A stretch of DNA of 37,836 bases, taken from contig CAZJVM010000022.1 in the NCBI GenBank assembly GCA_964549305.1, positions 1 to 37,836 of the forward strand. The letters run 5' to 3'. The position numbers were made by a program, and so were the translations under genes. This DNA comes from an uncultured bacterium. GTDB taxonomy: Bacteria > Schekmanbacteria > GWA2-38-11 > J061. Each line of letters opens with the position of its first letter. The first letter of the stretch is position 1. Under the pieces are notes generated by a model. It searched no databases and was not told where the DNA came from. It saw only the letters and a list, made by a program, of their open reading frames with translations. Shown one piece after another: positions 5,589-37,836 of the stretch.

Positions 5589-5829
5589 TGATATTTCCTT
5601 AATTACAGTGCGCATTTAACACAAATAAACTCTCAAATCTATATTCAACTGCCCGCTTATTTGTTTTGCTTTTTCGAAAATTCTTTCGCGCTTTCTTCAA
5701 AGTATTTAAATTGACTAAAAAAAACATCTGCATTAAAATGCCCGTAAAAGCAAAATCTGAATTGTTTAAAACCATTTCCAATTAAGCATTGTTGCGAAAT
5801 TAAAGAGAACGCTGAAAAGGAGACCTCAA

Positions 5830-19811: not shown

Positions 19812-20600
19812 ATGCGTGAAACCGTTACAATGTGGAAATATACTAAAATGGTTGTGCTTTGCGCTATAACGGCTGCAATATTCGCGGCAATTCTGATTCC
19901 CATGAAAAGCATACCAATCATACCCGGGTCAACGGAAATCAGGCCCGCGTCGGTCATTCCCGTTGTCTTCGGAATTCTCTTCGGGCCTGCCGGTGCCTGG
20001 GGTTCCGCATTGGGAAATTTAATAGGCGACTTCTTCGGCACTCTGGGAATAGGAACAATCTTCGGCCTTATAGGAAATTTTTTCTTCAGTCTCACGGCAT
20101 ACCGCTTAATCAACGCAAGGGACATTTATCATAACTACTGGCAAAAGAAGAGCAAGGTAGTCTTCTGTTCCTTTTTTCTTTATGTGGGCATCGTATCGAG
20201 CGCCGCCTGCGCGTCTATAATTGCCTGGGGGTTAGACATTCTCGGTCTTGTCCCCTTCTCGGTGCTCGCGTCGATTATCTTCATCAACAATCTCATAGTC
20301 TCCGTAGTCCTCGGTCCCCTCGTATTCCTTGTCCTTTATCCGAGAGTGGAAAAATGGGATATGCTTTGGACCGACATACTGAAGGCTTCCGATTTTCACA
20401 AATGCACAGCATCAAAAACCGCAAAGATTCTAATCATCACCGGAAGCATCGGAGCGCTGGCAGTTGGAATTATCCTTTCATCGGGATTCGGCGGAAAAAT
20501 CCCCATAGTTTCCGAGGGGTCTTTTCTTTCTCAATACGCAACCGGGATATCAGTTGTACCGTTCCTCATCATACTCTTAGCTGGCTGTATAATACCCTGA
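19812..20600 (+). CDS. ECF transporter substrate-specific S component (QueT-like family, extended)
   Basis: Motifs MWKYTKMVVL, IIPG.TEIRPA..IPVVFGILFGPAGAWG.A.GNLIGD; about 7-8 TM segments; adjacent to the ECF ATPase gene. Confidence 0.8.
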   Translation: MRETVTMWKYTKMVVLCAITAAIFAAILIPMKSIPIIPGSTEIRPASVIPVVFGILFGPAGAWGSALGNLIGDFFGTLGIGTIFGLIGNFFFSLTAYRLINARDIYHNYWQKKSKVVFCSFFLYVGIVSSAACASIIAWGLDILGLVPFSVLASIIFINNLIVSVVLGPLVFLVLYPRVEKWDMLWTDILKASDFHKCTASKTAKILIITGSIGALAVGIILSSGFGGKIPIVSEGSFLSQYATGISVVPFLIILLAGCIIP

Positions 20601-20608
20601 TTTCTCAA

Positions 20609-22321
20609 ATGGATAAGGAAAAAAAACCACTTCTTGAAGCCGAAGATATAACCTTTTCCTATAAAAATTCTTCGAATAAACAGCTTGACGGCATCTCATT
20701 CAAAATCAATGAAGGTGATTTTGTGGCAGTACTTGGAAAAAGCGGCGCAGGAAAATCCACTCTTTTGCTTACCCTAAACGGTCTCATTCCAAACTTAATC
20801 AGAGGAGATTTCAAGGGGAAAGTAACACTACTGGGGCAGGATATTTCATCTTCGTCCCTTGCGGAATCATCAAAAATAACGGGCATAGTTTTTCAGGATT
20901 TCGAATCACAGCTTTTCTCCACAAGCGTTGACCTCGAAATTGCCTTCGGACTTGAGAATCTCGGAAGGGAAAGGGAAAAAATCAAAGAGGCTATTTTAAA
21001 ATACCTCGCGATGACGGGGCTTGACGGTTTTGAATCAAGACAACCCGCAATGCTTTCGGGGGGAGAAAAACAGCGCCTTGCAATTGCGTCAATGCTTGCT
21101 ATGGAACCGGTTTTAATCTGCCTCGACGAACCCACCACCGACCTTGATCCGGAAGGCAAGGAAAGCGTCTTTAATGTGGTAAAAAAAATCAAGGAAGACA
21201 GGAACAGGACTATCGTGGCAGTGGAACACGAAACTGACGAACTCATTAATTCCGACAAGTGCATACTGATTAACGAGGGAAAAATAATCTTCCTGGGAAA
21301 AAGCGAAGAGATTTTTATAAAAACCGATATGCTCGAGGAATACGGAATCCTTCCTCCCCAACTTGCCCTCATTGCAAAACTTGCGGGTTTCGAAAGGCCT
21401 TTTCGCAACGCGGAAGAATCGGTTTCTTTCATAAAAGCAAAGGGATATTCCATCGACGGGAACGCCGTGGCAAATCTGAAGCAAAGAGATGAGGAAGAGT
21501 TTTCCGCCATAAGGAATTCAGAAATTGAGATAGAATTGGATAATGTGTTTTTTTCCTATGAAGGTGAAAAAGATATCCTCAAAGATATGTCAATTCAATT
21601 CAGGAAAGGCGAGATAACGGCTATTGCCGGAGGAAACGGAAGCGGAAAAACAACTCTTGTAAAGCATTTCAACGGACTGCTTTCTCCCAAATCAGGGAAG
21701 ATAAAGTTAATGGGCAGGGATATAAATGATTACAGCAGTATCGAGCTTGCGCAAAAAGCGGGATTCGTTTTCCAGAATCCCGACTGCCAGATTTTTTCCG
21801 AAACGGTAATGGATGAAGTGGCATTCACACCGCGCCTCCTCGGACTCGATGAGGAGGAAATCGAAAGGAGAGTGAAGGACGCGCTTGATGCCGTGGGACT
21901 TTCCGCCTATGCTGATTATGATCCATTTGTTCTCACAAAGGGCGAAAGACAGAAAATTGCCGTAGCATCGGTGCTTGCGGCGAAAAGCCGTATCATCATA
22001 CTCGATGAACCAACCACGGGGCTTGATTTCAGCGAGCTTAAGGGAATGATGGAGCTTCTTCTCGATTTAAACGGGCAGGGGCATACTATCATTATGGTAA
22101 CCCACTCCATGCACGTAATCACGAATTATGCAAAAAGATTGATAATAATGAATAAGGGGAAGATTGCTTTTGACGGCAAAACAGCAGACGCTGTGGCGGA
22201 CGAAAAACTGCTGTCTGAAAACAATATGAAGGCGCCTGAAGTAGTAAAAATATCCTCTTTGCTCGGATGTCCGCTGAAATCCTTTGATGATTTTAAAAAA
22301 GCGGTTAAAATAAATAATTGA
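20609..22321 (+). CDS. ECF transporter ATPase with duplicated A-A' domains
   Basis: Two NBDs: GKSGAGKST/LSGGEKQR/DEPT and GGNGSGKTT/FQNPD/LTKGERQK/DEPT. ATG 20609 lies 8 bp after the S-gene stop; the ORF-track start at 20354 overlaps the S gene. Confidence 0.9.
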   Translation: MDKEKKPLLEAEDITFSYKNSSNKQLDGISFKINEGDFVAVLGKSGAGKSTLLLTLNGLIPNLIRGDFKGKVTLLGQDISSSSLAESSKITGIVFQDFESQLFSTSVDLEIAFGLENLGREREKIKEAILKYLAMTGLDGFESRQPAMLSGGEKQRLAIASMLAMEPVLICLDEPTTDLDPEGKESVFNVVKKIKEDRNRTIVAVEHETDELINSDKCILINEGKIIFLGKSEEIFIKTDMLEEYGILPPQLALIAKLAGFERPFRNAEESVSFIKAKGYSIDGNAVANLKQRDEEEFSAIRNSEIEIELDNVFFSYEGEKDILKDMSIQFRKGEITAIAGGNGSGKTTLVKHFNGLLSPKSGKIKLMGRDINDYSSIELAQKAGFVFQNPDCQIFSETVMDEVAFTPRLLGLDEEEIERRVKDALDAVGLSAYADYDPFVLTKGERQKIAVASVLAAKSRIIILDEPTTGLDFSELKGMMELLLDLNGQGHTIIMVTHSMHVITNYAKRLIIMNKGKIAFDGKTADAVADEKLLSENNMKAPEVVKISSLLGCPLKSFDDFKKAVKINN

Positions 22322-22400: not shown

Positions 22401-22416
22401 TGGCACGTATATTGCA
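22401..22416 (+). promoter_or_regulatory. sigma54 (-24/-12) promoter
   Basis: TGGCACGTATATTGCA matches TGGCAC-N5-TTGC, 40 bp upstream of the activator ATG. Confidence 0.85.
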
Positions 22417-22456: not shown

Positions 22457-24805
22457 ATGAATAAAGGACCTGAAATACTTGTCGTAGACGACAACAAAAG
22501 CTTCAGAAGAGGTCTCAACCTCTCCTTCAGCGCTGAAGGTTACAGCGTAACCGAAGCCGAAAACGGCATTCAGGCGTTAAAAACTCTTAAAGAGGGAAGT
22601 TTTGATATTCTCATCAGCGATATCCGGATGCCGGGATTGAGCGGACTCGAACTTCTTGAAAAATTAAAGGAAATGGAGTGCGACTGCCCGGTAATAATGA
22701 TTACGGCGCACGCTTCAGTGGATGTTGCCGTTGACGCAATGAAGAAGGGCGCATTCGATTTCATCGAAAAACCCTTTAAATTTCAAGACATTGAGCTGAA
22801 AGTCAAAAAAGCCCTCGAAAAGCTTTCACTCGTTCGCGAGGTGAAAAAGCTTTCACGGGAAAACGAATATCTCAAGGACGAGGCGAAAAGCGAATACGAC
22901 TTCGAAAACATTGTCGGGAAAAGCAAAAAGATGCTTGAAGTCTATTCGCTCATAAAGAAAATCGCGGCAAGCAGTTCAAACGTGCTGATTTACGGCGAAA
23001 GCGGCACGGGAAAAGAGCTTGTGGCAAGGGCAGTGCATTACAGAAGCGACAGAAGCAACGCGCCTTTTATTAGAATCAACTGCAGTGTCTATCCTGAAAA
23101 CCTTCTCGAAAGCGAACTTTTCGGACATGAAAAAGGCGCCTTTTCAGGCGCTTCGAAATCACGCGTCGGCAGGTTTGAAATAGCAGACGGAGGGAGCATC
23201 TTTATCGATGAAATCGGCGAGCTTTCGGCGCCCGCACAGATAAAGCTTTTAAATGTCATACAGGAAAGAGAGTTTGAAAGAATCGGTGACAATAAGACAA
23301 GAAAGGTAGATGTGAGAATAATCGCCGCAACGAACAAAGACCTTGCGGAATCTGTAGTCAACAAGCAATTCAGGGAAGACCTTTATTACAGGCTCAATGT
23401 CATAAGCATCACTCTACCGCCTCTTAGAGAAAGAAAGGAAGACATCCCCGCTCTCAGTTTCCATTTTTTGAAAAAATACGGAACAGGCAAAAACGCACTG
23501 AAAAAACAACCGATTACAGGAATTTCCAAAGACGCGCTGGACATTCTTTCGGCGTATCATTGGCCGGGAAACGTAAGAGAGCTTGAAAATGTCATAGAGC
23601 GCGCGGTAGTCCTCGCCGAAGGTTCACTTCTTGAAACTCCCGACCTTCCCATGGCGATTCGCACAGATAACCACGCGGAAAGAGTCATCGCGGAAAATGA
23701 CGGCGGAAACCTTCAGGACAAAATCGCGGATTATGAAAAGGCAATTATCGAAAAAGCATTCGAAAAATGCAACGGAGTCATTTCTAAAACAGCGGAAGAG
23801 TTGGGAGTGGAAAGAAATGCCCTTCGTTACAAGCTTAAAAAATACGGTTTCATCGCCCTTTTTCTTTGCGCCTTCCTCTATTCAGTCTTTATGCCGACTG
23901 CATACGCTTTTGACAGCGATGTAAAAGAGGAAACAACGATACTTTGGTCTAAAATATCTGATATTAAAGCGAAAATCAGAGATATATCAACACGGCAGAA
24001 ACTGATTGAGCGAACTTCAAAAGAAAAATCAGAACTGCTGGAAAGAAAAAAGCTGTCCGGCGGTTTTCTTCCCGCATCGGCAGACAATGAGATACAGAAT
24101 CTTTTAAAAGAGATACGCGACCTTTCCGACGAATACACATCCCTTCAGAAGGAGAAAATACGGTTATCACGGGAAATATCAGACTATTCGGAACAATATA
24201 TAAAAGCAGGCTCTCTCAGAATTAAGATGTTGACTGAGAACATCCGGAAAACTTCTTCCGGAGGGGAAACGCCGGAGTGGATTCAGGAATACAGGGAAAT
24301 AGAGGAGATAGAAAAGAATATCTCGCAAGTGACATATTCAGGAAAAAGCAGACTGGAAATCATTGACGGAAACATAGAAATAAGCATATTCAGAAATAAT
24401 CCAAATAATATAGACAGGATAACGGAAGAAATCGAATATATTGACGAAGGCGTAAGTATGCTTATCCAATCGCTCGATAAACTCCATTCAAGACTGGAAT
24501 ATCTTTACAACGTAAAGGAAGCTAAGGAAAGACTAAGTGCTATGTATCGCCGGATTCACTCGGGCGACCGCCTGAAACCCTCTGAACTTGCAGCGGTTTC
24601 AAATCTTGAAAAAGACATAAAATCCCTCGAAGATGAAATTGAAATAATTAAGAATGATATCTCCTTGTCTGAGATAAAGATAAAAGAATTCAAAAAAAAA
24701 TATGCGGAATTAGAAGAAATGATATCCTCATATGAAGACGAGAATATAATAACGGAAAACAAGAGAAAAGAAAACCTGTTGATTCCCGCAAAATCAGAGA
24801 AGTAG
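22457..24805 (+). CDS. sigma54-dependent response regulator (REC-AAA+-HTH, NtrC/AtoC family) fused to a hydrophobic helix and ~300-aa coiled-coil domain
   Basis: REC (VVDD, SDIRMPGLSG, KP); Walker A GESGTGKE; ESELFGHEKGAFSGA; FREDLYYRLNV; WPGNVRELEN; Fis-type HTH ending LRYKLKKYG; then FIALFLCAFLYSVFMPTAYA and heptad-rich E/K/I/L sequence. Confidence 0.88.
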   Translation: MNKGPEILVVDDNKSFRRGLNLSFSAEGYSVTEAENGIQALKTLKEGSFDILISDIRMPGLSGLELLEKLKEMECDCPVIMITAHASVDVAVDAMKKGAFDFIEKPFKFQDIELKVKKALEKLSLVREVKKLSRENEYLKDEAKSEYDFENIVGKSKKMLEVYSLIKKIAASSSNVLIYGESGTGKELVARAVHYRSDRSNAPFIRINCSVYPENLLESELFGHEKGAFSGASKSRVGRFEIADGGSIFIDEIGELSAPAQIKLLNVIQEREFERIGDNKTRKVDVRIIAATNKDLAESVVNKQFREDLYYRLNVISITLPPLRERKEDIPALSFHFLKKYGTGKNALKKQPITGISKDALDILSAYHWPGNVRELENVIERAVVLAEGSLLETPDLPMAIRTDNHAERVIAENDGGNLQDKIADYEKAIIEKAFEKCNGVISKTAEELGVERNALRYKLKKYGFIALFLCAFLYSVFMPTAYAFDSDVKEETTILWSKISDIKAKIRDISTRQKLIERTSKEKSELLERKKLSGGFLPASADNEIQNLLKEIRDLSDEYTSLQKEKIRLSREISDYSEQYIKAGSLRIKMLTENIRKTSSGGETPEWIQEYREIEEIEKNISQVTYSGKSRLEIIDGNIEISIFRNNPNNIDRITEEIEYIDEGVSMLIQSLDKLHSRLEYLYNVKEAKERLSAMYRRIHSGDRLKPSELAAVSNLEKDIKSLEDEIEIIKNDISLSEIKIKEFKKKYAELEEMISSYEDENIITENKRKENLLIPAKSEK

Positions 24806-24843
24806 CGAAAAATTTTTTTTCATCACCGAAAAAAAATTTTCAC
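24806..24843 (+). promoter_or_regulatory. Candidate upstream activator sequences (two tandem imperfect palindromes)
   Basis: CGAAAAATTTTTTTTCA (24806-24822) and CGAAAAAAAATTTTCA (24827-24842), starts 21 bp apart, about 110-145 bp upstream of the sigma54 site. Confidence 0.55.
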
Positions 24844-24909
24844 CCTTTATAGCTCAAACACATCCTAAAATCGCAGAAATACTTTCACAAAAAGGTTTAT
24901 TTCTCACAT

Positions 24910-24922
24910 ATTCAATAAGTTA
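24910..24922 (+). promoter_or_regulatory. Candidate IHF-binding site
   Basis: ATTCAATAAGTTA has one mismatch to WATCAANNNNTTR and lies between the UAS and the sigma54 promoter. Confidence 0.5.
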
Positions 24923-24949
24923 GAATTTTCTATTTATCCCAAAAAAACT

Positions 24950-24965
24950 TGGCACGAATTTTGCA
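24950..24965 (+). promoter_or_regulatory. sigma54 (-24/-12) promoter
   Basis: TGGCACGAATTTTGCA matches TGGCAC-N5-TTGC. Confidence 0.88.
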
Positions 24966-24985
24966 ATATAAAAAGCGACTTAATA

Positions 24986-25003
24986 CAGGACTTGTTTAGT
25001 CCG
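24986..25003. promoter_or_regulatory. Palindromic operator (GGACT-N5-AGTCC), Rrf2/IscR type-1-like
   Basis: CAGGACTTGTTTAGTCCG just downstream of the expected sigma54 start site; 16/18 identical to 36477-36494. Confidence 0.6.
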
Positions 25004-25026
25004 GTTTTATGAGGAGAATTAACAAT

Positions 25027-25368
25027 ATGGCTTTAATTTTAAAAAATAAAACCCGCGCCCGCCGGTCAGAGAAACGCCGTAAAGGTTACGGCAAAAACCT
25101 TCGCGTCTCTCCCTGCAAAAAGAACGATTGGGTATTCTCTGTTTCCGGCGGACGTTTTTTCAATAGAGGAAATTTTACCCTCCTCCACCTAACAGGATAT
25201 TGCGACTGCCTGCATTTAAAAGACGGATACCCTCCTGGCCCAATGCAGGTGGTTGCTTTTCCTTTTTTAAATTTATTTAAAACGAATGTATCTGTTCGTT
25301 CCGCTAATGAAGCAGTTAAAAAAAGAATGCAGGGTAAGAGACACATTTTTTTAAACTCTTACTTTTAA
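25027..25368 (+). CDS. Possible 113-aa basic leader ORF or hypothetical protein
   Basis: GAGGAG RBS ahead of ATG 25027, first ORF after the sigma54 promoter, stop abuts the cytochrome RBS. No recognisable family. Confidence 0.35.
   Translation: MALILKNKTRARRSEKRRKGYGKNLRVSPCKKNDWVFSVSGGRFFNRGNFTLLHLTGYCDCLHLKDGYPPGPMQVVAFPFLNLFKTNVSVRSANEAVKKRMQGKRHIFLNSYF
25202..25268 (+). terminator. Attenuator-like hairpin with U-tract inside the cytochrome leader
   Basis: GCGACTGCCTGCATT (25202-25216) pairs with AATGCAGGTGGTTGC (25242-25256) including 3 G-U pairs, followed by TTTTCCTTTTTT. Confidence 0.5.
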
Positions 25369-25375
25369 AGGAGAA

Positions 25376-26047
25376 ATGATGAAGATGAAAACTTTTTTAA
25401 TCACCTTTATTGTTTCATTATCGATGTTTGTATCAGCTTTTTTCATTACCGAAGTTGCAATTTCAAAATGCAGTAAATCGGTAACAAAGGGCAAAAACCT
25501 TTATGTGGCAAACTGCCAAAGCTGTCACGGCAATAAAGGAAAGATTCACAGAATCAACAGAGAAAGCAGAAGAAGCTTTATGAGGGATGTCCTTGGAAGC
25601 AAGGGCAGATCAGACAGACAGGACAAAGATAATGAAAACGGCGAAAACGAAAGAGATTTCGACAAAGATTCAGAAAATGCTTCAGGAAGTTCTTCAATGC
25701 CCGGTTTTAAAGGAACATTGAAAAAGAGTCAGGTTAATTCCATATACCGTTATCTTAAAAAACCTAAAAAAGCCTGCAACAACGGTGGTGGTAACAACAG
25801 TGGTGGAACAACAAATCCCACATACTCAAGCGACATAAGCAGTCTTCTGTCTTCAAACTGCACCGCCTGCCACAACTCTTCGTCTGCGGCAAAGGGAGTT
25901 GCACTCGATACTTACGCCGATGCCGTATCAAACGCTTCCGCGGCAAAAACAACTATCGATAGTGGCACTATGCCTCCGGGAGGTTCGCTTTCCGCCTCAC
26001 TTGTGTCAACATTTGATACCTGGGTGGCAAATGGCACTCCGCAATAA
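25376..26047 (+). CDS. Exported diheme cytochrome c
   Basis: Signal peptide; CQSCH...MPGF and CTACH...MPPG (His/Met class I type); Gly/Asn linker; second domain resembles planctomycete-type cytochrome c domains; AAGGAG RBS. Confidence 0.85.
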   Translation: MMKMKTFLITFIVSLSMFVSAFFITEVAISKCSKSVTKGKNLYVANCQSCHGNKGKIHRINRESRRSFMRDVLGSKGRSDRQDKDNENGENERDFDKDSENASGSSSMPGFKGTLKKSQVNSIYRYLKKPKKACNNGGGNNSGGTTNPTYSSDISSLLSSNCTACHNSSSAAKGVALDTYADAVSNASAAKTTIDSGTMPPGGSLSASLVSTFDTWVANGTPQ

Positions 26048-26181: not shown

Positions 26182-27357
26182 ATGAAAATTACTTTGCCCA
26201 CGACATTCGAAGATTCATTCGTTGACGGACTTAGACAGATAAACGAAAATTCTCCTCAGGATTCACCTAAAATAGGAGAAGTTTACGGAAGTCTTCAAAG
26301 CTCCATTCTTGCTTCCGCGAGACCGTCGAAATATCTGCCCTCTCCCGATTTCAAGGGAATCAAAAAGCATATCAAAGCCCTGAATAGCGCGGGCATCGCT
26401 TTCTCTTATCTCGTGAATGCCCCCTGCATAGGGAATGTTGAATATTCCCAAACTGGAAGAAAAGAGATTGAAGAGCTTTTTGGCCGTCTTTGCGACAACG
26501 GAGTAACCCGAATGGTAGTTACCATTCCCTACCTTATAGAAATATTACGGGAAAAATTTCCCGGCATAGAAATCTGCGCGTCTTCAATCTGCTACATTTC
26601 AAACGTAAAAATCGCAAAACGCTATGAAGATCTGGGTGTAAAAAGAATCATCATCGACCCGGACAAAAACAGGGATTTCAACCTTATCAGAAAAATAGCA
26701 AACTCAGTTAATTGCGAAATTGAGATAATCGCAAACCATACCTGCATTCATCATTGTTCATATGAATACTACCACTACAACAATACAGGGCACGGGAGTC
26801 AGCGCGCGGAAAGAGTACGGGAGAAACCTTACAATCAATACAACCTGCTTTCCTGCACGCTGAAGAAGCTCGAATCTCCCTGGGAATTTCTCGCGTCTCC
26901 CTGGATACCGCCTGCAGACACAGGCGTTCTGAAAGATAAGGGTGTAAACTGGCTTAAACTTGCCGGCAGAGGGTCATCATCAGAAACTCTTCTTAAACTT
27001 GCAGACGCCTACGCTAACAGAAAGCACGATAAAGACCTGATCTCTCTTTTAGGCTGGTGCCACTGGAATAATTTCAGAAAAAAGGGAGACAATTCTTCAC
27101 TGCCGGAATTGAAAGTACTTCTCGACTCGGAAAAACTGGAAGGGTTCATCGATAAATTCAGAAAACATTATGACTGCGACGACGGTTGCGAAACCTGCAG
27201 TCATTGCAAAAAATACGCGGAAAAAGCTATAAGTTATGATATTGAGCTTTTAAAGGAATACAGAAAAAATCTTTCGGAGAAACTATCATCGGTTATCAGA
27301 GAAGACAAAAAGAAAGAGGCAACACAAAGGAATACACATCTCAAGGTATTACCCTGA
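26182..27357 (+). CDS. Peptidase U32-superfamily Fe-S protein (candidate O2-independent hydroxylase)
   Basis: Motifs EVYGS, F.YL.NAPC, ASSI, D.NRDF, ANHTCIHHC...H...C, PWI, LKLAGR; C-terminal CDDGCETCSHC. Confidence 0.78.
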   Translation: MKITLPTTFEDSFVDGLRQINENSPQDSPKIGEVYGSLQSSILASARPSKYLPSPDFKGIKKHIKALNSAGIAFSYLVNAPCIGNVEYSQTGRKEIEELFGRLCDNGVTRMVVTIPYLIEILREKFPGIEICASSICYISNVKIAKRYEDLGVKRIIIDPDKNRDFNLIRKIANSVNCEIEIIANHTCIHHCSYEYYHYNNTGHGSQRAERVREKPYNQYNLLSCTLKKLESPWEFLASPWIPPADTGVLKDKGVNWLKLAGRGSSSETLLKLADAYANRKHDKDLISLLGWCHWNNFRKKGDNSSLPELKVLLDSEKLEGFIDKFRKHYDCDDGCETCSHCKKYAEKAISYDIELLKEYRKNLSEKLSSVIREDKKKEATQRNTHLKVLP

Positions 27358-27372
27358 CTGAAAAATGATTTA

Positions 27373-28869
27373 ATGGAAAAGATATTCTTTATAACAGGCG
27401 CCACAGGGTTGCTTGGAAGCAGACTCGCTTATAACCTTATCTCGTCGGGTTATAAAACAATCTGTCTTTCACGGTCAAAGGACAACGAAGACGCGTACAA
27501 TCGTGTGCTAAAGAGCGTTTCCTTTTGGAGTGAAGAGGGTCTTCATAGATACAAAGACAATCTGGAGATAATAGAGGGCGACATTGAAAAGAAAAATCTC
27601 GGACTCCACAGGGAGACAATAGCACGCCTCGGAAATATCCGCCCCGTTGTCATACACTGCGCGGCTTGTACATCCTTTGATTTGCGCGACAGGGACTCCC
27701 TTTTCAAAACCAACCTCGAGGGCACCATAAACGCCACAGACGCGGCGCGCCTTTTTTCGGCATCCCAATTCAATCACATAAGCACGGCATATGTGGCGGG
27801 CAACTGCGATGATATATTTTCCGAAAATGATTTTGACGTGGGACAATCCTTTAAAAACGCCTATGAGTCATCTAAATTCGAAGCTGAAAAAGCAGTGAGA
27901 AAGTTCGGAGAAGAAACAGGGATTCAGGCATTGATATTCCGCCCTTCAATAATAATGGGAGACCACTCATCGGGAAAAACATTTAACTTCAACGCCATAT
28001 ACACATACTTAAGGGTCATCAACGCCATAAAGGGCAGAGGAATAGAAAAAAAAGAGGGCGAAATCAGATTTGAATGCAGAAAAGATGTCGTAAAAAACAT
28101 CATTCCCATAGATTACGCGGCAGACTCCGTTTCAAAAATCATACTTTCATCTGATGAAGATTCACCGCAAACATATCACATAACAAATCCGGGTCCTCCG
28201 TCATTTTCAGGGCTTAATGATTCTATTCACAGAATTCTTTCCGTAAATCCTCTTAATCTTGTGGAATCGCTTTCAGATAACGGAGATAAATCTTCTAAAA
28301 CTGAATTGCTTTTAAAAAACGCAATGAAGTCATATCGCCCCTACCTTTTTCACGAACCGCTTTTCGCCTCGATGCGCACCAATACGATTCTCGAAGAAAA
28401 AGGAATCTTCTTTCCTCAAATCGACGAAGCATACTACAAACGAATAGTTGACTTTTTTACAAAGAGGCACTCACATAATCTTCCGGAAAGAAGCGGCATA
28501 ATAAAGATTTTCGAGCTAAAAATGCGTCTTTCGGTCGGAAGCGAAATAATCCCCAATCTTAAGTCGCTAACGAAAGACTTCATACTTTGTATAAGCGATA
28601 TCGGTGTGACTTATTATATGAGCGTAGAAAATGGCAGGCTTGTGAAATTCGCTGTAAATGAATCCCCTGAAAAAGCGGTATTCAAGTTTATCACCTCTTG
28701 CGACACATTCGAAAAACTTCTCCTAATGAAAGTAGGTCCTCAGGAGGCATTTTTCAAAAAGCTTGTCCGAATTGAAGGCTCGGTTATCGATGCGCTCTCT
28801 CTTTCAACGGTTTTCGAAGAATTTTTCGCACTTTTCAATAAAGAGACAAATGCATCCCAAATGGTTTGA
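27373..28869 (+). CDS. Extended SDR (fatty acyl-CoA/thioester reductase-type) fused to a C-terminal SCP2-like lipid-binding domain
   Basis: Motifs ITGATGLLG, IHCAA, N.EGT, HISTAYVAG, YESSK (YxxxK), RPSII.G; C-terminus ...FEKLLLMKVGPQEAFFKKLVRIEGSV fits the SCP2 pattern. Confidence 0.8.
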   Translation: MEKIFFITGATGLLGSRLAYNLISSGYKTICLSRSKDNEDAYNRVLKSVSFWSEEGLHRYKDNLEIIEGDIEKKNLGLHRETIARLGNIRPVVIHCAACTSFDLRDRDSLFKTNLEGTINATDAARLFSASQFNHISTAYVAGNCDDIFSENDFDVGQSFKNAYESSKFEAEKAVRKFGEETGIQALIFRPSIIMGDHSSGKTFNFNAIYTYLRVINAIKGRGIEKKEGEIRFECRKDVVKNIIPIDYAADSVSKIILSSDEDSPQTYHITNPGPPSFSGLNDSIHRILSVNPLNLVESLSDNGDKSSKTELLLKNAMKSYRPYLFHEPLFASMRTNTILEEKGIFFPQIDEAYYKRIVDFFTKRHSHNLPERSGIIKIFELKMRLSVGSEIIPNLKSLTKDFILCISDIGVTYYMSVENGRLVKFAVNESPEKAVFKFITSCDTFEKLLLMKVGPQEAFFKKLVRIEGSVIDALSLSTVFEEFFALFNKETNASQMV

Positions 28870-29947
28870 CATAAGCACAGACGAGTGGATTCGCCATATC
28901 ACGGAAATCCATTTTCATCCCGAAGAAGGCGCGCCCTACTGGCTGAAATTTCAGAAGGAGCGCGGCATAGATGCCTTGCGCGAAATAAGACGCGCCGATG
29001 ACCTTATAAAACTGGGTCCTATGGATGAAAAAGAGCTTGCCCGAATTCCCGTGGAAGAATTCATTCCGAAGCGTTTTATGAAGGACAAATCGCGGATTCT
29101 CACAGCGGAAACGGGAGGCACAACGGGAGTTGTAAAGAATACGGCGTATTCCATCGGGGAATTCAGATATGCCTTCTCTGATTTCTTTCATAAGGTCGCG
29201 TCCGGGCGAAACTTTCCCGGCAACCTTAACTGGCTTTTTGTGGCGCCTTCGGGACCTCACATCATATACCGCTCGGCAATCGAGATGGCAAAATCATTTG
29301 GAGCAATGTCACCCTTTGCAGTTGATTTCGATCCGAGATGGGTAAAAAAATTGAACCCCGGTTCACTCCCCTTTAAACGATACAAGGCGCATATTCTGGA
29401 GCAGGCGCTTAGAATAATACATACTCAAAATATCGGAATTCTTTTTACCACTCCCGACATCGCCCTGAACATTGCCGAAGAGTTGAAACCGCGTACGCGC
29501 GAATTGATAAAGGGAATTCATCTCGGCGGACTTCCGGTTTTTCCCCATATTTACGAAAAACTGTCGGGGCTTTTCCCGTCGGCAGTCATTATACCGGGCT
29601 ACGGTAATACCCTTTTCGGGCTTACGCTCGAAGTCAAACATCCTGACAGGGATTACAATGTCACCTACTATCCTCCGGGTCCGCGGCTGATAATCGACAT
29701 TCTCAAGCTGTCAGACAACAAAGGTCCCGCGACGCTTGAAAAAACCGATTACGGTGAAAGAGGGCGTGTAGCTTTTCACCGCCTTGATGAAATATTTTTC
29801 ATCCCCAACCTCATAGAAAGAGATGAAGCGGAACGCGCCGAACCGGAATCTGTCTGTACCTGGAAAGCGGGCTCGCAGGACGGAATCAGAAACCCCGCGC
29901 CTTCGCGGGATAAAAAAGAAATAACCATTAAGGAGGGATTATATTGA
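28850..29947 (+). CDS. EhpF/GriC-type adenylate-forming aryl-carboxylate activating enzyme (PaaK-like ANL fold)
   Basis: Motifs HF.PE.GAPYW, ETGGTTG, PSGPH, VDFDPRWVKK, LFTTP, LGG, YGNT, YGERGRV, ERD.A.R and terminal EGLY match my recollection of the EhpF/GriC family. ATG 28850 overlaps the SDR gene end and gives 365 aa. Confidence 0.8.
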   Translation: MHPKWFDISTDEWIRHITEIHFHPEEGAPYWLKFQKERGIDALREIRRADDLIKLGPMDEKELARIPVEEFIPKRFMKDKSRILTAETGGTTGVVKNTAYSIGEFRYAFSDFFHKVASGRNFPGNLNWLFVAPSGPHIIYRSAIEMAKSFGAMSPFAVDFDPRWVKKLNPGSLPFKRYKAHILEQALRIIHTQNIGILFTTPDIALNIAEELKPRTRELIKGIHLGGLPVFPHIYEKLSGLFPSAVIIPGYGNTLFGLTLEVKHPDRDYNVTYYPPGPRLIIDILKLSDNKGPATLEKTDYGERGRVAFHRLDEIFFIPNLIERDEAERAEPESVCTWKAGSQDGIRNPAPSRDKKEITIKEGLY

Positions 29948-30540
29948 AAAGGGCATTAAGGGCTTTACTTCTGACGGCATTGTTTCTGTCATCGATTATA
30001 ATAACTTCCGCGCGATGTGAAACCGTGCGTTACGATTTTGACTCTTCTTCGAGCAAAATTGTTTTTCACGGCAGGTCCACCCTGCACGCATTTGAGGGCA
30101 TAGTTGAGGAGGTTTCCGGATTTGCCGGGGGCGACACGCAATATATCGAGAGGTCCTCAAACGGTGAATTTCACGTGAAAGTGGAATCGATGAAATGCGA
30201 AAGTGAAAAGATGAATAAAAATATGCTCGAAGACCTGGAATCCGAAAAATTCCCTTCCATAGATTTTGTACTCTCGGACACAAGTGTGCTAAAATCTCCT
30301 GATGAGGAAAAGCAATATTACCTTGCAAGCATTACGGGTAACCTGAGTATTCACGGCGAAACAAAAAAAATAACCTTCCCCGCGGAAGTGGAGATGAATG
30401 AAAAGGATTTCAATCTGCGGGCTACTGTGCCTCTTTCTCTTGCAGACTTTGACATAAAGCCGAAAACTCTGCTCTTTTTCATAAGAGTCAAGGATGATAT
30501 AACTCTTGATATAAACCTTCACGGGAAAAGGAATCAATAA
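29944..30540 (+). CDS. YceI-family periplasmic lipid/polyisoprenoid-binding protein
   Basis: Signal peptide; S.I.F.G.STLH.FEG, LESEKFP.I.F, G.L.IHG.TK, DF.I.P, V.D.I; TTGA overlap with the upstream stop; AAGGAGG RBS. Confidence 0.85.
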   Translation: MKRALRALLLTALFLSSIIITSARCETVRYDFDSSSSKIVFHGRSTLHAFEGIVEEVSGFAGGDTQYIERSSNGEFHVKVESMKCESEKMNKNMLEDLESEKFPSIDFVLSDTSVLKSPDEEKQYYLASITGNLSIHGETKKITFPAEVEMNEKDFNLRATVPLSLADFDIKPKTLLFFIRVKDDITLDINLHGKRNQ

Positions 30541-30543
30541 ATA

Positions 30544-31209
30544 TTGGAAGAAAAACTTTTTCTGGACAATAATGGAATCCCTCTCGAGGGAATTCTTTCC
30601 TATCCCGAAAACACATCTGAAGAGAAACCCGTTGCCATATTTCCTCCCCATCCGAAATTAGGCGGAAACATTGAAAACAATGTTGTAACTGCCCTATCAT
30701 CGTCGCTTAGCGACGCGGGCTTTTTAACAGGAAGATTCAACTACCGCGGAGTGGGCAAAAGCGGAATGGAAATTGAAAATACCACGCTCTTCGACTATTG
30801 GGAGAACCTCGACTCCTCGGGAGATTTTACGAATATAATTTCCGATGCTGCAATCATAACGGATAAATTGATGAAGGTTTCTTCTGCCAAAACCCTTTGC
30901 CTTGCAGGTTATTCTTTTGGCACGAGGATTGCCGCGGAATTTTGCGAAAAATCCTTCACTGAAAAAGCGGTATTCATATCTCCCCCCCTCTCCTTTTACG
31001 ATTATTCATTCCTCTCCTGTTTCAAAGGAAGCGCGCTCTTCATAATCGCGGAAAACGACATATGTCTCAGCGAAGACGAGTTAATATCCTTTATTGATAA
31101 AACCGGAATAAAGGGCAAAATCAAAGTAATAGACGGCGAAGACCATTTTTACAGGGAAAGCGAAGAAAAAATCGCGAAGCTTGCCGTGAATTTTTTACAA
31201 GAGGGCTAA
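30544..31209 (+). CDS. Alpha/beta hydrolase
   Basis: Motifs PHPKLGGNIENNVV, RFNYRGVGKS, nucleophile GYSFG, END and DHFY (Ser-Asp-His triad). Confidence 0.85.
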   Translation: MEEKLFLDNNGIPLEGILSYPENTSEEKPVAIFPPHPKLGGNIENNVVTALSSSLSDAGFLTGRFNYRGVGKSGMEIENTTLFDYWENLDSSGDFTNIISDAAIITDKLMKVSSAKTLCLAGYSFGTRIAAEFCEKSFTEKAVFISPPLSFYDYSFLSCFKGSALFIIAENDICLSEDELISFIDKTGIKGKIKVIDGEDHFYRESEEKIAKLAVNFLQEG

Positions 31210-31239: not shown

Positions 31240-31995
31240 ATGGCGTCAATCAATATAAAAGATCTGGTTAAAAGTTATAACGACAGGCGCGCCCTCGACT
31301 GCCTCAATATGGAAATCCGAAGCGGTGAAATAATGGGGCTTTTGGGCCCAAACGGCGCGGGCAAAACAACGCTTCTCTCCATCCTCTCCGCTGTATTCAC
31401 TCAGGATAGCGGCACAGTTGATATTGTTGAAAAAAAGGGATTTTCCGGCACTCCCGCGGATTTCAAACAGAATACAGGAATTGTCCCCCAGGATATTTCA
31501 CTTTACGGAGATTTCAACTCTATTGAAAATATCGTTTTCTTCTCGAGGATGTACGGAAAGGGAGGAAAATCTCTCAGAGATAAAACTTCAGAGCTTCTTT
31601 CCCTGGCAGGACTTGAAAAGCGGAGCAGGGAAAGGATTAAAAATCTCTCCGGAGGAATGAAAAGACGGCTCAATTTCGTTTGCGGTCTGGTAAATTCTCC
31701 TTCTCTTGTCCTGCTCGACGAACCCACGGTCGGTGTTGACCCGCAGTCGCGCGAACACATATACTCCATGGTACGACGCCTTAGAGATGAAGGGGTGACG
31801 GTCATTCTTGCAACACACTATATGTTCGAAGCGGAAACACTGTGCGACAGGATTGCCGTTATGGACAGGGGAAAAGTTCTAATGGTGCACACTGCCGATG
31901 AATATATGTCTCTTTTCGGAGAAAAGCTGGGACTTGAAGGAATCAATATGGAAAAGATTTTTCTTCACATAACGGGGAAAGAACTTCGGGATTGA
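31240..31995 (+). CDS. ABC exporter ATP-binding protein (ABC-2/drug-resistance type)
   Basis: Motifs GPNGAGKTT, LSGGMKRRLN, LDEPTVGVDPQSR, THYM.EAE.LCDR and ITGKELRD. Confidence 0.92.
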   Translation: MASINIKDLVKSYNDRRALDCLNMEIRSGEIMGLLGPNGAGKTTLLSILSAVFTQDSGTVDIVEKKGFSGTPADFKQNTGIVPQDISLYGDFNSIENIVFFSRMYGKGGKSLRDKTSELLSLAGLEKRSRERIKNLSGGMKRRLNFVCGLVNSPSLVLLDEPTVGVDPQSREHIYSMVRRLRDEGVTVILATHYMFEAETLCDRIAVMDRGKVLMVHTADEYMSLFGEKLGLEGINMEKIFLHITGKELRD

Positions 31996-31996
31996 A

Positions 31997-33220
31997 ATGG
32001 TCAAACTTTTTTACATAGTCCTCAAAGAGCTGAAACTTCTCGCAAGGGACAAGACATCGCTCATCCTCATGACTGCCGTACCCATTGTCGTAATCTCCGT
32101 GGCAGGACTGGCATTGAGCGGACTTTACGGAAAATCAGGCACGGGAGTGAAGATTTATATTCCCGTTGCAGACCTCGACAACAGGGAGTTTTCCTCTATT
32201 TTGCCTGAAATTCTTGAAAAAAGCGGACTCTTTACAATAGAAAAAGTATCTGAAGAGGAAGCATACGCCCTTGTGAGGGATAAGAACAAAGCGGCAGCAG
32301 CAATAATAATTAAGCGGGGATTTTCAAAAAACTGCATTACCGGAGGTGTGCCTGAAATAAAACTGATAACCGACCCCGCAAAAGCTCTCGAAATATCAAC
32401 CGTAAAGAGCGCTCTCAGGGAATTCGAAATTCGCCTGTCTTCAGCACTTCAAAAAATAAGGGGCATGAAATCATCTTCGCTTCCCCTTCTGCTTTCTCTC
32501 AACCCTTCGCTCATTGAAACAAAATTCAGGTCGCTTATTAAAAAGGAATCCGCGTCATCGGTAAAAATTGTCGAGGAAAACCTTACGGGAATAAAAAAGA
32601 ATCTGAACTCATTCGACCAGAATGTTCCGGGATTCAGCATAATGTTTGCAATGTTCGGAATGCTATACGGCTTTTCGGAAAGTATTTTCAGGGAAAGAGA
32701 TGAAGACAATACCATAAGGCGTTTTCTCTCATCTCCGGCAGGTTTCTCATCTTTTCTTCTCGGAAAACTCATATCAAAAATAATAACGGGATTTATCCAA
32801 CTTGCCATACTTTTTGCCTTCGGACATTTTGTTTTCCATATGTCGCTGGGAAATTCATTGGCGGGAATGGCAACGGCTATTCTCGGAATCTCATTCGCTT
32901 CCGCGTCAATCGGGCTTCTCGTTTCGAGCCTTTCGGATACGCGCGAGCAGGCGCGCTCTCTCGGCACACTGGTAATTCTCACACTTGCGGGTCTTGGCGG
33001 ATGCTGGTGGCCTCTTTTTATAGAACCTTCATGGATGCAGAAGCTTTCACTTCTTGCAATGCCCGCGTGGGGGATGAACTGCTTTTATAACTTTATGCTG
33101 AGAGGCAAAGGAATCGCGGAAACTGCTTATTACCTTGGCGGACTCTATCTTTATGCCGTAATCGCCCTTGTCGCGGGAATGATAATTTTTTCACGCTGGG
33201 ATGAAAGGCGACTCCTTTGA
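31997..33220 (+). CDS. ABC-2 type exporter permease
   Basis: KELK...RD, one TM plus large extracytoplasmic loop, PGFSIMF, LGGCWWP, PSWMQ, five C-terminal TMs. Confidence 0.9.
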   Translation: MVKLFYIVLKELKLLARDKTSLILMTAVPIVVISVAGLALSGLYGKSGTGVKIYIPVADLDNREFSSILPEILEKSGLFTIEKVSEEEAYALVRDKNKAAAAIIIKRGFSKNCITGGVPEIKLITDPAKALEISTVKSALREFEIRLSSALQKIRGMKSSSLPLLLSLNPSLIETKFRSLIKKESASSVKIVEENLTGIKKNLNSFDQNVPGFSIMFAMFGMLYGFSESIFRERDEDNTIRRFLSSPAGFSSFLLGKLISKIITGFIQLAILFAFGHFVFHMSLGNSLAGMATAILGISFASASIGLLVSSLSDTREQARSLGTLVILTLAGLGGCWWPLFIEPSWMQKLSLLAMPAWGMNCFYNFMLRGKGIAETAYYLGGLYLYAVIALVAGMIIFSRWDERRLL

Positions 33221-33318: not shown

Positions 33319-34098
33319 ATGGACTATTTTCTCTACAAGGACAACGATTCGCCTGTTAACGGGCTTGACCCCCGAACGAAGATTTTTATTCTCGCAATCT
33401 CTTTTCTCCTTTCACTTCTTTTCCAGCATCCTCTTTACAACTCGGCAGTCCTTCTCCTGATTATCTGTTACGGCATAATGGGAAAAGCGACTGGAAGCAT
33501 CAAAGTGATATGGAAAATGATATTGGTGATTTCAATCCTTTCTGTACTCATCTGGACATTCTCACTCGGAGGGAAAACTCCGCTATTCTGGAAAATACGC
33601 CTCGAACCCCTTCTTTACGGAATTGCCGCGGCAATTAAGATAAACTCGATGATTATAGCGGGCCTTATTTTCCTCACCACAACGCGAAATGAAGACATAA
33701 GCCTGGGACTTATAAAACTGGGACTTCCCTACCGAATCGGCTTCGCCTTTTCAACTGCCCTGAGACTCGTGCCTACATTTATCGGTACGGCAATGACAGT
33801 GATTCAGGCGCAGAAGGCGCGCGGATTCGACCCTTTTACGGGAAGCATAATTGAAAGAATCAGGAAGTTTGTCCCTCTCCTGGGTCCCGTATTTCTCCTT
33901 ACGCTGAGAAGCGCGGACACTCTTTCCCTTGCCCTTGAGTCAAGGGGATTTTCCATAAGGGAAAAAAGGACTTTTTACAGGATGATAAATATAGACACAA
34001 AGGATATTATCTTTCTTTCGGTTACGGCAATTCTTCTTTTCGCGGCAATATGGATTAAGTTTACCGGCGCGGGAAACCTCGAAGGTATTATAAGGTAA
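33319..34098 (+). CDS. ecfT: ECF transporter transmembrane T component
   Basis: Motifs DS....LDPRTK, TT...D, ALR.VP and the two Arg motifs AQKARG and ALESRGF. Confidence 0.92.
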   Translation: MDYFLYKDNDSPVNGLDPRTKIFILAISFLLSLLFQHPLYNSAVLLLIICYGIMGKATGSIKVIWKMILVISILSVLIWTFSLGGKTPLFWKIRLEPLLYGIAAAIKINSMIIAGLIFLTTTRNEDISLGLIKLGLPYRIGFAFSTALRLVPTFIGTAMTVIQAQKARGFDPFTGSIIERIRKFVPLLGPVFLLTLRSADTLSLALESRGFSIREKRTFYRMINIDTKDIIFLSVTAILLFAAIWIKFTGAGNLEGIIR

Positions 34099-37072: not shown

Positions 37073-37836
37073 TCAGGCATCACGCTTTATTATTAGCTCA
37101 GATGAAATTCTCCCTGACTCGATAATAGTTGGCAAACCGCTTCCCGGATGAGTCCCTCCCCCAACGAGATAACAGTTTCGCACTTCCTCAAAATCATTGT
37201 GAGGTCTTAAGTAGAGCATCTGATTTATACTGTGGGCAAGATTGAAAATCCCCCCTCTGTAGACATATTTCTCATTTTCCCAGTCATCGGGTGTAATTAT
37301 CTTTTCAACCTTGATATGCTTCCTTAAATCTTTCAACCCCGCCCTCTCTTCAACTATCCCGAGCACTTTCTCCCTGTAGCGCAGTTTTTCATTGCTCCAG
37401 TCTATATTTGCGCTTCTGTTTGCAATGGGCACCAGAATATAGATTGTGGACTGCCCTTCGGGCGCAAGCGTCTTGTCACTTATACAGGCATTTTGTACAT
37501 ATATTGAAGGGTCTTCGGAAAGAACCTTTTTTTCCGCAATCTCCGCCACATTATTCCTGTAGTCAGGAGAAAAGATGATATTGTGGTGAGGAATGTCGTA
37601 AAGGCAGTCAAGCCCGAGATATATCATAAAAGATGAACAGGAATATTCTCTTGAAGAAATATCCGAAGGCGTGTATTTGCGCAAAATACCGTTTTCGAAA
37701 AGATTCGTCATTGCATAGGCAAAGTCTGCATTGATTACAACATAATCGGCGAACTCCTTCTCTCCGCTTTCAAGCTCGACTCCCTTAGCGCTTCCCTTTT
37801 CTACGATAACCTTTTTAACTCCACAGGAAGTGTGAA
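37073..37836 (-). CDS. Phytoene desaturase family (CrtI/CrtN-like), C-terminal part truncated by the window edge
   Basis: Frame is open to the edge (HTSCGVKKVIVEKG...VINADFAYAM); motifs YSCSSFMIYLG, HHNI, DPSIYVQN, LAPEG, TPDDW and YLVGGGTHPGSGLPTI.ESGRI. Confidence 0.88.
   Translation of the reverse strand, partial: HTSCGVKKVIVEKGSAKGVELESGEKEFADYVVINADFAYAMTNLFENGILRKYTPSDISSREYSCSSFMIYLGLDCLYDIPHHNIIFSPDYRNNVAEIAEKKVLSEDPSIYVQNACISDKTLAPEGQSTIYILVPIANRSANIDWSNEKLRYREKVLGIVEERAGLKDLRKHIKVEKIITPDDWENEKYVYRGGIFNLAHSINQMLYLRPHNDFEEVRNCYLVGGGTHPGSGLPTIIESGRISSELIIKRDA

Follow-up and report, generated by a model that had tools for sequence, protein, structure and literature searches.

The subject of this study is a pair of overlapping genes on contig CAZJVM010000022.1 of an uncultured bacterium (positions 1-37,836, the whole stretch that was analysed and hereafter called the window; its own genome is labelled G000). 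The first encodes a short-chain dehydrogenase/reductase (SDR) fused to an SCP2 lipid-carrier domain and the second an EhpF-like adenylate-forming enzyme. Together they form the core of an unstudied gene cluster, widespread among anaerobic bacteria, which often lies amid menaquinone genes and which probably modifies and exports a quinone-like lipid. All of the parts come from known families but their combination is new: within futalosine operons, an EhpF-type adenylase and a free reductase-domain-type SDR-SCP2 are accompanied by a U32 protein, a hydrolase, an exporter and in many cases a transaminase. The gene association is not described in the literature that was searched, a search which did not extend to supplements or to the primary papers on EhpF and GriC/GriD. 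The two genes are:

27373..28869, + strand: extended SDR of the reductase (R) domain or fatty acyl reductase (FAR) type (residues about 1-370) fused to SCP2 (about 375-498), 498 amino acids (aa), assigned from NCBIfam, PDB, Pfam and fold
28850..29947, + strand: EhpF-like adenylate-forming enzyme, ANL N-domain only, with an invariant C-terminal G-x-Y, 365 aa from the ATG

The upstream protein is an R-domain/FAR-type SDR fused to SCP2. Its best whole-protein match in NCBIfam was PRK07201 (1.6e-43), and it also matched the thioester reductase family TIGR01746 (1e-35 over residues 6-360; 123.7 bits, under the curated cut-off of 213) and, by its R part only, the carboxylic acid reductase (CAR) family NF041592 (1.5e-20; 72.5 bits, cut-off 1300). 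Matches in the PDB were to a CAR R domain (4.7e-16), to MxaA and to further R domains of nonribosomal peptide synthetases and polyketide synthases (PKS). An AlphaFold model built from 24 sequences (pLDDT 88.9) was nearest in fold to the R domain of myxalamid MxaA (TMt 0.76-0.77), to those of CAR, to a PKS thioreductase and to the fatty acyl reductase of rice; ranks 1-23 of this search were all R domains, FAR or CAR, with sugar epimerases from rank 24 on. Residues from about 375 to 497 were modelled as a helix, a five-stranded sheet and helices (pLDDT mostly 77-91), the database cluster of the protein bears Pfam PF07993 together with PF02036 (SCP2), and PF02036 is also found in many homologues, which JGI names ‘lipid carrier protein YhbT’. 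The protein thus has the Rossmann TGxxGxxG motif, the Tyr-x3-Lys pair, the R-domain fold and the C-terminal SCP2 domain (PF02036), and across the 24 aligned sequences the glycine-rich loop (G9/G12/G15), R34, Y164 and K168 are invariant in the SDR while no Cys is.

The downstream protein is a homologue of full-length EhpF that lacks the ANL C-terminal subdomain. It matched the solved EhpF (PDB 3hgu/3l2k) with an E value of 2.7e-27 (query 10-330 against chain 20-336 of 366), and its chain stops about 40 residues past the hinge, closing in the invariant G-x-Y, with the A9-A10 subdomain absent. Because its eight closest homologues, of 362-365 aa, cover 100% of the query, the ATG at 28850 is favoured over an upstream TTG at 28763. 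Residues invariant among 22 sequences are G93, K96, G250-Y251-G252-N253-T254, D313, R324-D325, G363 and Y365, which we take to represent the named ANL motifs (G93/K96 being the P-loop region); there is no invariant Cys among them.

Relatives were sought with an alignment-based locus scan, one genome per species, superseding an earlier scan with the single EhpF-like protein which had given one locus only. At least 588 stretches encode EhpF-like relatives and the best 80 loci were kept, mainly from Planctomycetota (anammox Brocadiales, Pirellulales, Gemmataceae and Phycisphaerae), Desulfobacterota and Lentisphaerota, with a few from other phyla. Below, L-numbers denote these homologous loci, P-numbers protein matches and G001-G003 relatives in the order of the window. 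A ladderane or anammox-specific role for the module was considered and ruled out, as the module is widespread beyond anammox bacteria. Neighbours were counted by tblastn (thresholds of 50 bits and 30% query cover), both in all 80 loci and in the 45 with at least 6 kb on both flanks.

An SDR, with or without recorded SCP2 and always on the same strand upstream of the adenylase, was found in 63 of the 80 loci (41 of the 45 with long flanks), and of the 17 SDR-negative loci 13 are flanked by less than 6 kb on one side or both. The other conserved partners were an HAE3/MMPL transporter (58/80; 37/45), a class-III aminotransferase (56/80; 40/45), a small alpha/beta hydrolase (47/80; 28/45) and a double-U32 protein (46/80; 33/45). 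Examples of the aminotransferase gene in Kuenenia and Sedimentisphaerales operons are L011 11198-12472 and L027 11707-12999. An aldehyde dehydrogenase (ALDH) was found in none of the 80 loci and none of the 45, using as query an ALDH of the window's own genome, where the ALDH genes sit on other contigs. An acyl carrier protein (ACP) was found in 1/80 and 0/45; there is none on the window's contig, and an ACP family search of the own genome matched contigs C16 and C70 only. The sequence-only reading of this stretch had proposed just such an arrangement, an R-type SDR with SCP2 as the reductase partner in place of a GriD-type enzyme and no carrier protein nearby, and on both points the wider sample agrees with it. 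In the reverse direction, a scan with a narrower SDR alignment (A3) returned 80 loci, mostly (75/80) unrelated PF07993 SDRs without SCP2; an EhpF-like gene was present in 5/5 loci with an SCP2-bearing SDR versus 0/75 without, although this is a small sample. Complex prediction of SDR-SCP2 with the EhpF-like protein (alignments A2 and A1) gave an ipSAE of 0.00 in two runs, which weighs neither way.

In the window the two genes overlap by 20 nt, the ATG at 28850 preceding the SDR stop codon TGA at 28867-28869, so the adenylase does start inside the final 20 nt of the SDR-SCP2 gene as had been read from the sequence. Overlap or abutment recurs in G001 and G002, as judged by the coordinates of high-scoring segment pairs, and to this extent the translational coupling that had been suggested holds; it does not hold family-wide. 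Because the pair is directly adjacent in only 3/63 SDR-positive loci, coupling is a trait of the window's small clade and not of the family. Elsewhere the gene between them is MMPL (46 loci), the hydrolase (11), both (1) or another (2).

GriC/GriD and EhpF are known as two-protein aryl-carboxylate reductases. EhpF/EhpG and GriC/GriD (of phenazine and grixazone; ThnN/ThnO, of thienamycin, belong with them) resemble the pair described here in full-length adenylase homology, at about 30% identity to plasmid genes, in having a short ANL enzyme without the C-terminal subdomain, and in having a separate reductase gene in the same operon. The plasmid relatives are annotated ‘arylcarboxylate reductase’, ‘phenazine biosynthesis protein’ or ‘AMP-binding protein’. 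Seven of their contexts were opened, one of which was unannotated. Of the six with annotation, one has a type I PKS after the adenylase, and five encode an ‘aldehyde dehydrogenase family protein’ directly downstream; these five are an E. coli phenazine-type cluster, Streptomyces goshikiensis, Pantoea agglomerans, Burkholderia ubonensis and Halalkalicoccus. In the module, by contrast, the partner is the R-type SDR-SCP2, without any ALDH in the 80 loci. The catalytic Cys of an ALDH partner could take over the acyl group, and for this the SDR pair has no counterpart.

A tree of the adenylases, made by a quick search for which the tool warned of long branches, held 92 rows (the window, the 80 loci, three relatives, seven plasmid proteins and one PaaK-like protein of the own genome as outgroup; none dropped). 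A branch with an SH-aLRT support of 100 separated the seven plasmid EhpF/GriC-type rows from the 84 window-type rows, and the window clustered with G001-G003, L003 and L004 (support 99), so that the EhpF-like protein does not fall within the clade of characterised or annotated EhpF/GriC members. This phylogeny, a comparison which the earlier reading had put forward, thus sets the SDR-linked adenylases on a branch of their own, separate from the ALDH-linked EhpF/GriC-type proteins. Since ALDH follows the adenylase in the canonical contexts and the plasmid proteins branch apart, the SDR looks like a non-orthologous replacement of the ALDH reductase partner. Five long members of the adenylase family were found, among them P0246 (EhpF-type plus ALDH, 1258 aa), P0248 and P0249 (EhpF-type plus zinc-type alcohol dehydrogenase of the medium-chain dehydrogenase/reductase (MDR) family, 725 and 729 aa) and P0245 (alpha/beta hydrolase (abH)::EhpF-like, 674 aa, possibly a read-through gene call on a GC-rich contig); none of the five carries a PF07993 SDR, a point of weak evidential value.

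The other obvious comparison is with CAR, in which adenylation, peptidyl carrier protein and R domains are joined in one chain (A-PCP-R; NF041592). Its R domain is among the best sequence and fold matches of the SDR and the logic is alike, an ATP-dependent activation followed by NADPH reduction to the aldehyde, but the module lacks a phosphopantetheine carrier and has its parts on separate proteins, SCP2 is fused to the reductase, and the adenylase comes from another ANL branch and lacks the C-terminal subdomain.

The link to menaquinone is made by genes of the futalosine pathway. An early futalosine gene lies in 25/80 loci, whose records are labelled Planctomycetota, Pseudomonadota, Actinomycetota and Hydrogenedentota. 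An MqnD-like gene (about 290 aa) was found in 18 loci, mainly of Gemmataceae/Planctomycetaceae types, and directly follows the EhpF-like gene in 13 of these 18; it matched the solved MqnD (2czl/3a3u) at 1.4e-43 and AF1704 at 2.1e-50. In three Gemmata-type or actinobacterial genomes the MqnD-like gene of the operon has one other paralogue, of 37% identity, which is taken to be MqnA. In seven loci, of Pirellulales, Sedimentisphaerales and Phycisphaerales type, the chorismate dehydratase MqnA (7ahr, 8e-21) and an MqnE-MqnC fusion (TIGR03700 and TIGR03699, both well over their cut-offs) lie directly upstream of SDR-SCP2, and in an eighth the fusion only. For four planctomycete genomes the sole strong MqnC/MqnE-class matches were at the operon coordinates (G031) or on one contig each (G038-G040), and the sole match over the MqnC cut-off is among these. 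MqnD forms 1,4-dihydroxy-6-naphthoate, which, as an aromatic carboxylic acid, is the type of substrate expected for an EhpF/GriC-type adenylase. The futalosine genes therefore lend support to the earlier guess of a prenylated or naphthoate substrate, although the substrate itself is still something that we infer.

There is a partial parallel in Streptomyces caniferus, where, according to the available part of the source, a second futalosine set (MqnA/C/E/D homologues) supplies 1,4-dihydroxy-6-naphthoate to the naphthoquinone branch of PM100117/18, and an ANL enzyme at this futalosine branch is proposed to adenylate the 6-carboxyl of the dihydroxy-6-naphthoate (PMC4763440). There, GonSL has an ACP of its own and hands on to a PKS (PMC4763440), whereas the module has neither carrier nor PKS, and its follow-up enzymes are a reductase and, outside the window, a transaminase.

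In L075 (7914-9938), from an uncultured Planctomycetaceae metagenome-assembled genome, there is an in-frame 674-aa EhpF-like::MqnD-like open reading frame (ORF), either a real fusion or an assembly error. In L013 (13414-17092), as in 26 more loci that are mostly from anammox bacteria, the aminotransferase gene is followed by genes for cytochrome b6-like, subunit-IV-like and two multihaem NrfH-like proteins. Between SDR/SCP2 and MMPL, ArnT-like (GT-C) and ArnC-like (polyprenyl-phosphate sugar) glycosyltransferase genes are found in Brocadia loci, L038 among them. Within the window, two late menaquinone genes lie on the - strand at 4036-5615, one for an MqnP-type prenyltransferase of the UbiA kind (285 aa) and one for a MenG/UbiE methyltransferase of 240 aa, and an 890-aa protein (17015-19687, - strand) matches the geranylgeranyl reductase family over residues 474-790, with a faint MenJ match. 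No MqnD was found in the own genome with a profile of 14 operon-linked MqnD-like sequences, which matched MqnA (C19:3925-4734) only, nor in G001-G003 (97-99% complete) with a single-protein query, so the MqnD step could be missing or replaced in the window's lineage. Yet MqnA, MqnE and MqnC are present, along with a third paralogue, and so are MqnP, MenG and four homologues of UbiD. In G031, which holds L027 on a complete 7.5-Mb chromosome, the UbiD family gave no match at E <= 0.001 and a single MqnD-like query found none either. That the module might be a general substitute for UbiD-type naphthoate decarboxylation was ruled out, as UbiD homologues are present in the own genome and in 4/5 module-bearing genomes.

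In the window the pair belongs to a tight row of genes on the + strand at 25.3-33.2 kb, with a regulator gene upstream. The other features of this region are:

22401..22415, + strand: sigma-54-type site TGGCAC-N5-TTGC, exact, upstream of the regulator gene
22457..24805, + strand: sigma-54-dependent response regulator, NtrC/AtoC type, 782 aa (AtoC 5.8e-152 over residues 6-465)
24950..24964, + strand: sigma-54-type site, exact, in the 200-nt gap ahead of the cluster
25009..25368, + strand: small ORF, 119 aa, possibly a 5' leader (44% identical stretch in G001)
25376..26047, + strand: c-type cytochrome, 223 aa (weak cytochrome c matches; orthologues at the same place in G001 and G002)
26182..27357, + strand: divergent U32-family protein, 391 aa, with two invariant 4-Cys groups (by sequence and fold)
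29944..30540, + strand: YceI-like periplasmic lipid/polyisoprenoid-binding protein with an N-terminal signal-like segment (YceI family 2.3e-5)
30544..31209, + strand: small alpha/beta hydrolase, 221 aa, Ser124-Asp172-His201 (PDB 3trd 8.8e-16; 2i3d)
30918..30932, + strand: sigma-54-type site, exact, within the hydrolase gene and upstream of the ABC genes
31240..31995, + strand: ABC-2 type exporter ATPase (DrrA subfamily 2.2e-67)
31997..33220, + strand: ABC-2 type exporter permease (SagH family 1.5e-22; DrrB)

Of the four further genomes in the order of the window, three carry the EhpF-like gene and the remaining one is 70% complete. The order U32-like, SDR-SCP2, EhpF-like, YceI-like, hydrolase, ABC-2 ATPase and permease is kept in G001-G003; the cytochrome c gene heads the row in G001 and G002, and the sigma-54 response regulator lies upstream in G002. 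The core of the module is shared with Lentisphaerota L003 and Syntrophales L004, and the YceI-like, ABC-2 ATPase and permease genes are syntenic in all five. The Ser-Asp-His triad of the hydrolase is invariant in 31/31 sequences and its PDB relatives 3trd and 2i3d are uncharacterised. A conserved neighbour of 500-555 aa (F11) gave only ‘hypothetical’ or ‘lipoprotein’ clusters in the ESM Atlas, and nine unassigned neighbour families gave nothing useful in NCBIfam at E <= 0.1.

The protein at 26182-27357 is a member of the U32 family, with a TIM-barrel-like core and the conserved 4-Cys motif. The U32 peptidase structure 5d88 was its best PDB match both by sequence (E 2.6e-4) and by fold (E 2.4e-7, TMt 0.67), from a model of moderate quality (mean pLDDT 71.9, from 6 sequences), and 20 of 30 look-alikes in the ESM Atlas were Peptidase_U32 (PF01136; top score 0.97), while in NCBIfam it reached TrhP at 1.8e-3 only, far under the cut-off. 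C82/C188/C192/C225 and C332/C336/C339/C342 are invariant in 6 sequences. The setting recalls UbiU/UbiV/UbiT, in which a U32-family Fe-S protein is likewise encoded beside an SCP2 lipid-carrier domain in a quinone-related context, and the double-U32 proteins of the related loci matched UbiU at 1.6e-49 to 2.1e-52 and TrhP at 1.5e-61, all under the cut-offs; it differs in that the U32 protein of the window is very divergent, SCP2 is fused to the reductase and there is no ubiquinone pathway. U32 proteins have been linked to prephenate-dependent, O2-independent hydroxylation of aromatic and heteroaromatic rings in the part of the source available (PMC10990095), and from membership of this family we infer a hydroxylase activity for the U32 protein of the module (PMC10990095).

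The motif TGGCAC-N5-TTGC, which we take to be the sigma-54 consensus, occurs exactly three times in the window. G002 has sigma-54-type sites at the same three relative places, two of them exact and one, in the gap ahead of the cluster, with one mismatch; at the three equivalent places in G003 there was none. The regulator has an orthologue of 53% identity upstream of the same cluster in G002, aligning over residues 7-758, and homologues upstream in anammox loci; it carries about 300 extra C-terminal residues (about 466-782) beyond the NtrC-type match. The small ORF at 25009-25368 had no NCBIfam match, and an Rfam scan of the 410-nt leader (24700-25500) gave nothing near a gathering score. The regulator and cluster split a set of energy-coupling factor (ECF) transporter genes, with an S-like component and double ATPase upstream (19812-22321) and a CbiQ-type T component (33319-34098) directly downstream of the ABC-2 permease, where the T gene also lies in G001. 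At 37073-37834 (- strand) a phytoene-desaturase (CrtI) family gene runs past the end of the window.

Our preferred reading, which is tentative and to which we give rather less than an even chance, is of a sigma-54-controlled lipid-tailoring and export module in which the pair reduces the carboxylate of 1,4-dihydroxy-6-naphthoate or of its prenylated form. The EhpF-like enzyme would adenylate an aromatic carboxylate, most likely the 6-carboxyl of that compound or of its prenylated form, and the SDR would then take the activated acyl group to the aldehyde stage at the expense of NAD(P)H, or possibly in the window-type cluster on to an alcohol, while SCP2 holds the lipid tail. In most other lineages the co-operonic class-III aminotransferase would go on to make an amine. 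The U32-family Fe-S protein, being of an O2-independent hydroxylase family, may modify the ring by hydroxylation, the role of the hydrolase being conjectural, and the product would pass to the periplasmic YceI-like protein and the ABC-2 exporter here, or to the HAE3/MMPL transporter elsewhere. The lipid character of the module is supported by SCP2, YceI and the MMPL or ABC-2 genes. R-type SDRs reduce thioesters; since there is no carrier, no thioester-forming ANL C-subdomain and no conserved Cys in either protein, the reduction would have to be made directly from the acyl-AMP or via free coenzyme A (CoA) or pantetheine.

That missing thiol is itself the first of several points which weigh against this reading, as we know of no precedent for the direct hand-over of an acyl-adenylate to an R-type SDR. 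The rarity of direct adjacency of the pair (3/63) is another, and the 80 loci are not phylogenetically independent, so the neighbour counts overstate the support. A majority of the loci (55/80) have no Mqn gene inside the fetched flanks, and the window-type cluster itself holds no aminotransferase and no Mqn gene, MqnP and MenG lying about 20 kb upstream. Finally, UbiD-type decarboxylases were present in 4/5 of the module-bearing genomes tested, with four copies in the own genome.

The chief alternative, doubtful but with a chance that is far from negligible, is that the two enzymes work on different substrates whose products are then joined. The SDR-SCP2 would make a fatty aldehyde or alcohol from an acyl thioester, the aminotransferase, where present, would turn it into a fatty amine, and the EhpF-like enzyme would join naphthoate or an aryl acid to that amine or alcohol, perhaps via an acyl-Ser on the hydrolase, giving an exported amide- or ester-anchored quinone lipid, so that the pair would not be a carboxylate reductase at all. 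Such a two-substrate model is allowed because the U32, hydrolase, exporter and aminotransferase partners, which did not figure in the sequence-only reading, are conserved. It avoids the missing-thiol problem, as FAR-type SDRs use acyl-CoA or acyl-ACP and PRK07201 is the best match of the SDR, and the SDR model aligns with rice fatty acyl reductase over 462-464 columns; the conserved hydrolase with its invariant triad, the abH::EhpF-like fusion P0245, the mostly non-adjacent pair and an aminotransferase conserved to the same degree as the SDR all suit it as well. However, P0245 may be an artefact of gene calling, the partner of the adenylase is a reductase in all characterised or annotated relatives (ALDH neighbours; ALDH and MDR fusions), the SDR is the sole reductase of the module, and no case was found in which an EhpF-type enzyme serves as a ligase that forms amides or esters. 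Carboxylate reduction by the pair and this joining of two products fit the computed evidence equally well.

The remaining alternatives are less probable. LuxCDE also consists of three separate parts, an alpha/beta-hydrolase-fold protein, a short synthetase and a reductase, without a carrier, and the hydrolase, the C-domain-less ANL enzyme and the SDR could correspond to LuxD, LuxE and LuxC, as acyl-ACP transferase, synthetase and reductase that together provide an envelope lipid with a fatty aldehyde, alcohol or amine. The menaquinone neighbourhood would then be incidental, which would suit the many loci without an Mqn gene, and the conserved lipid-binding and lipid-export genes would be explained. 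We consider this unlikely. LuxC is ALDH-like, and LuxE and LuxC both use Cys acyl intermediates, whereas the reductase here is an SDR, neither adenylase nor SDR has a conserved Cys, and there was no Lux family match in NCBIfam. Moreover, the known relatives of the adenylase belong to aryl-acid pathways (phenazine clusters, ‘arylcarboxylate reductase’ genes), Mqn genes occur in loci of four phyla by label, with the operon copies being the sole strong ones in four genomes, and the U32 family is linked to aromatic and heteroaromatic ring hydroxylation in the available part of PMC10990095. Less probable again is that the SDR is a non-acyl enzyme, an epimerase, dehydratase or 3-beta-hydroxysteroid dehydrogenase type whose substrate would be a sugar or a polycyclic lipid, in a glycolipid or hopanoid-like pathway that has no chemistry in common with the adenylase. 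Weaker matches to HpnA (8e-14), LegB, RmlD and SdmB, the additional Pfam records PF01370, PF01073 and PF16363 for the SDR cluster, the nucleotide-sugar epimerases lower in the fold search, the resemblance of the transporter to HpnN and the ArnT/ArnC-like genes of the Brocadia loci all point that way, but the thioester-reductase and FAR families score far higher and across the whole catalytic region, the 23 best folds are R domains, FAR and CAR, and glycosyltransferase genes are confined to a few anammox loci. A PaaK-type aryl-CoA ligase acting with a neighbouring dehydrogenase in anaerobic aromatic-acid breakdown is the least probable of all and has been largely refuted, although some homologues are named ‘PaaK-like adenylate-forming protein’ by JGI. 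The PaaK model TIGR02155 matched three other genes of the own genome (C74, C2 and C18) at E <= 0.001 and not the EhpF-like gene, which had no NCBIfam match of any kind and, in the PDB search, no PaaK structure at E <= 10, in keeping with its earlier placement as a relative of EhpF rather than of PaaK. Furthermore, the PaaK-like protein of the own genome attached to the adenylase tree via a branch of length 10, the EhpF-like family as a whole is small, with 94 representatives at 1e-30 and 579 at E <= 0.001 out of 1.84 billion, and the context is of lipid binding and export and not of catabolism.

If the carboxylate of the naphthoate is indeed reduced by the pair, the consequence for quinone biology could be wider. 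The C6 carbon of 1,4-dihydroxy-6-naphthoate is normally lost by decarboxylation, and a bolder version of the preferred reading, doubtful but with some real chance of being right, is an undescribed O2-independent branch of the futalosine pathway which keeps this carbon and in which the carrier-free adenylase and SDR, in most lineages with the transaminase, together with a U32 hydroxylase, lead to a new exported naphthoquinone lipid. Its product would be a 6-formyl-, 6-hydroxymethyl- or 6-aminomethyl-substituted and possibly extra-hydroxylated naphthoquinone lipid, which anammox bacteria, other Planctomycetota, Desulfobacterota and their relatives would export to the envelope.

For enzymology, reduction by the pair would represent a minimal architecture for carboxylate reduction, a C-domain-less adenylase with a free R-type SDR and with neither carrier nor ALDH, and the SDR would be the first of the R type to reduce an acyl-adenylate without a thiol carrier, which would be of interest for biocatalysis and for how acyl-adenylates get reduced. 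Most U32 subfamilies are uncharacterised according to the part of the source available (PMC10990095), and the loci described here supply a gene context for one of them. Because the module shares an operon with the only strong MqnE/MqnC-class matches found in four planctomycete genomes, sits beside an MqnD-like gene in many others and adjoins cytochrome b6 and multihaem gene sets in anammox bacteria, it can be put to the test as a candidate for some unrecognised step or product in the quinone metabolism of strict anaerobes.

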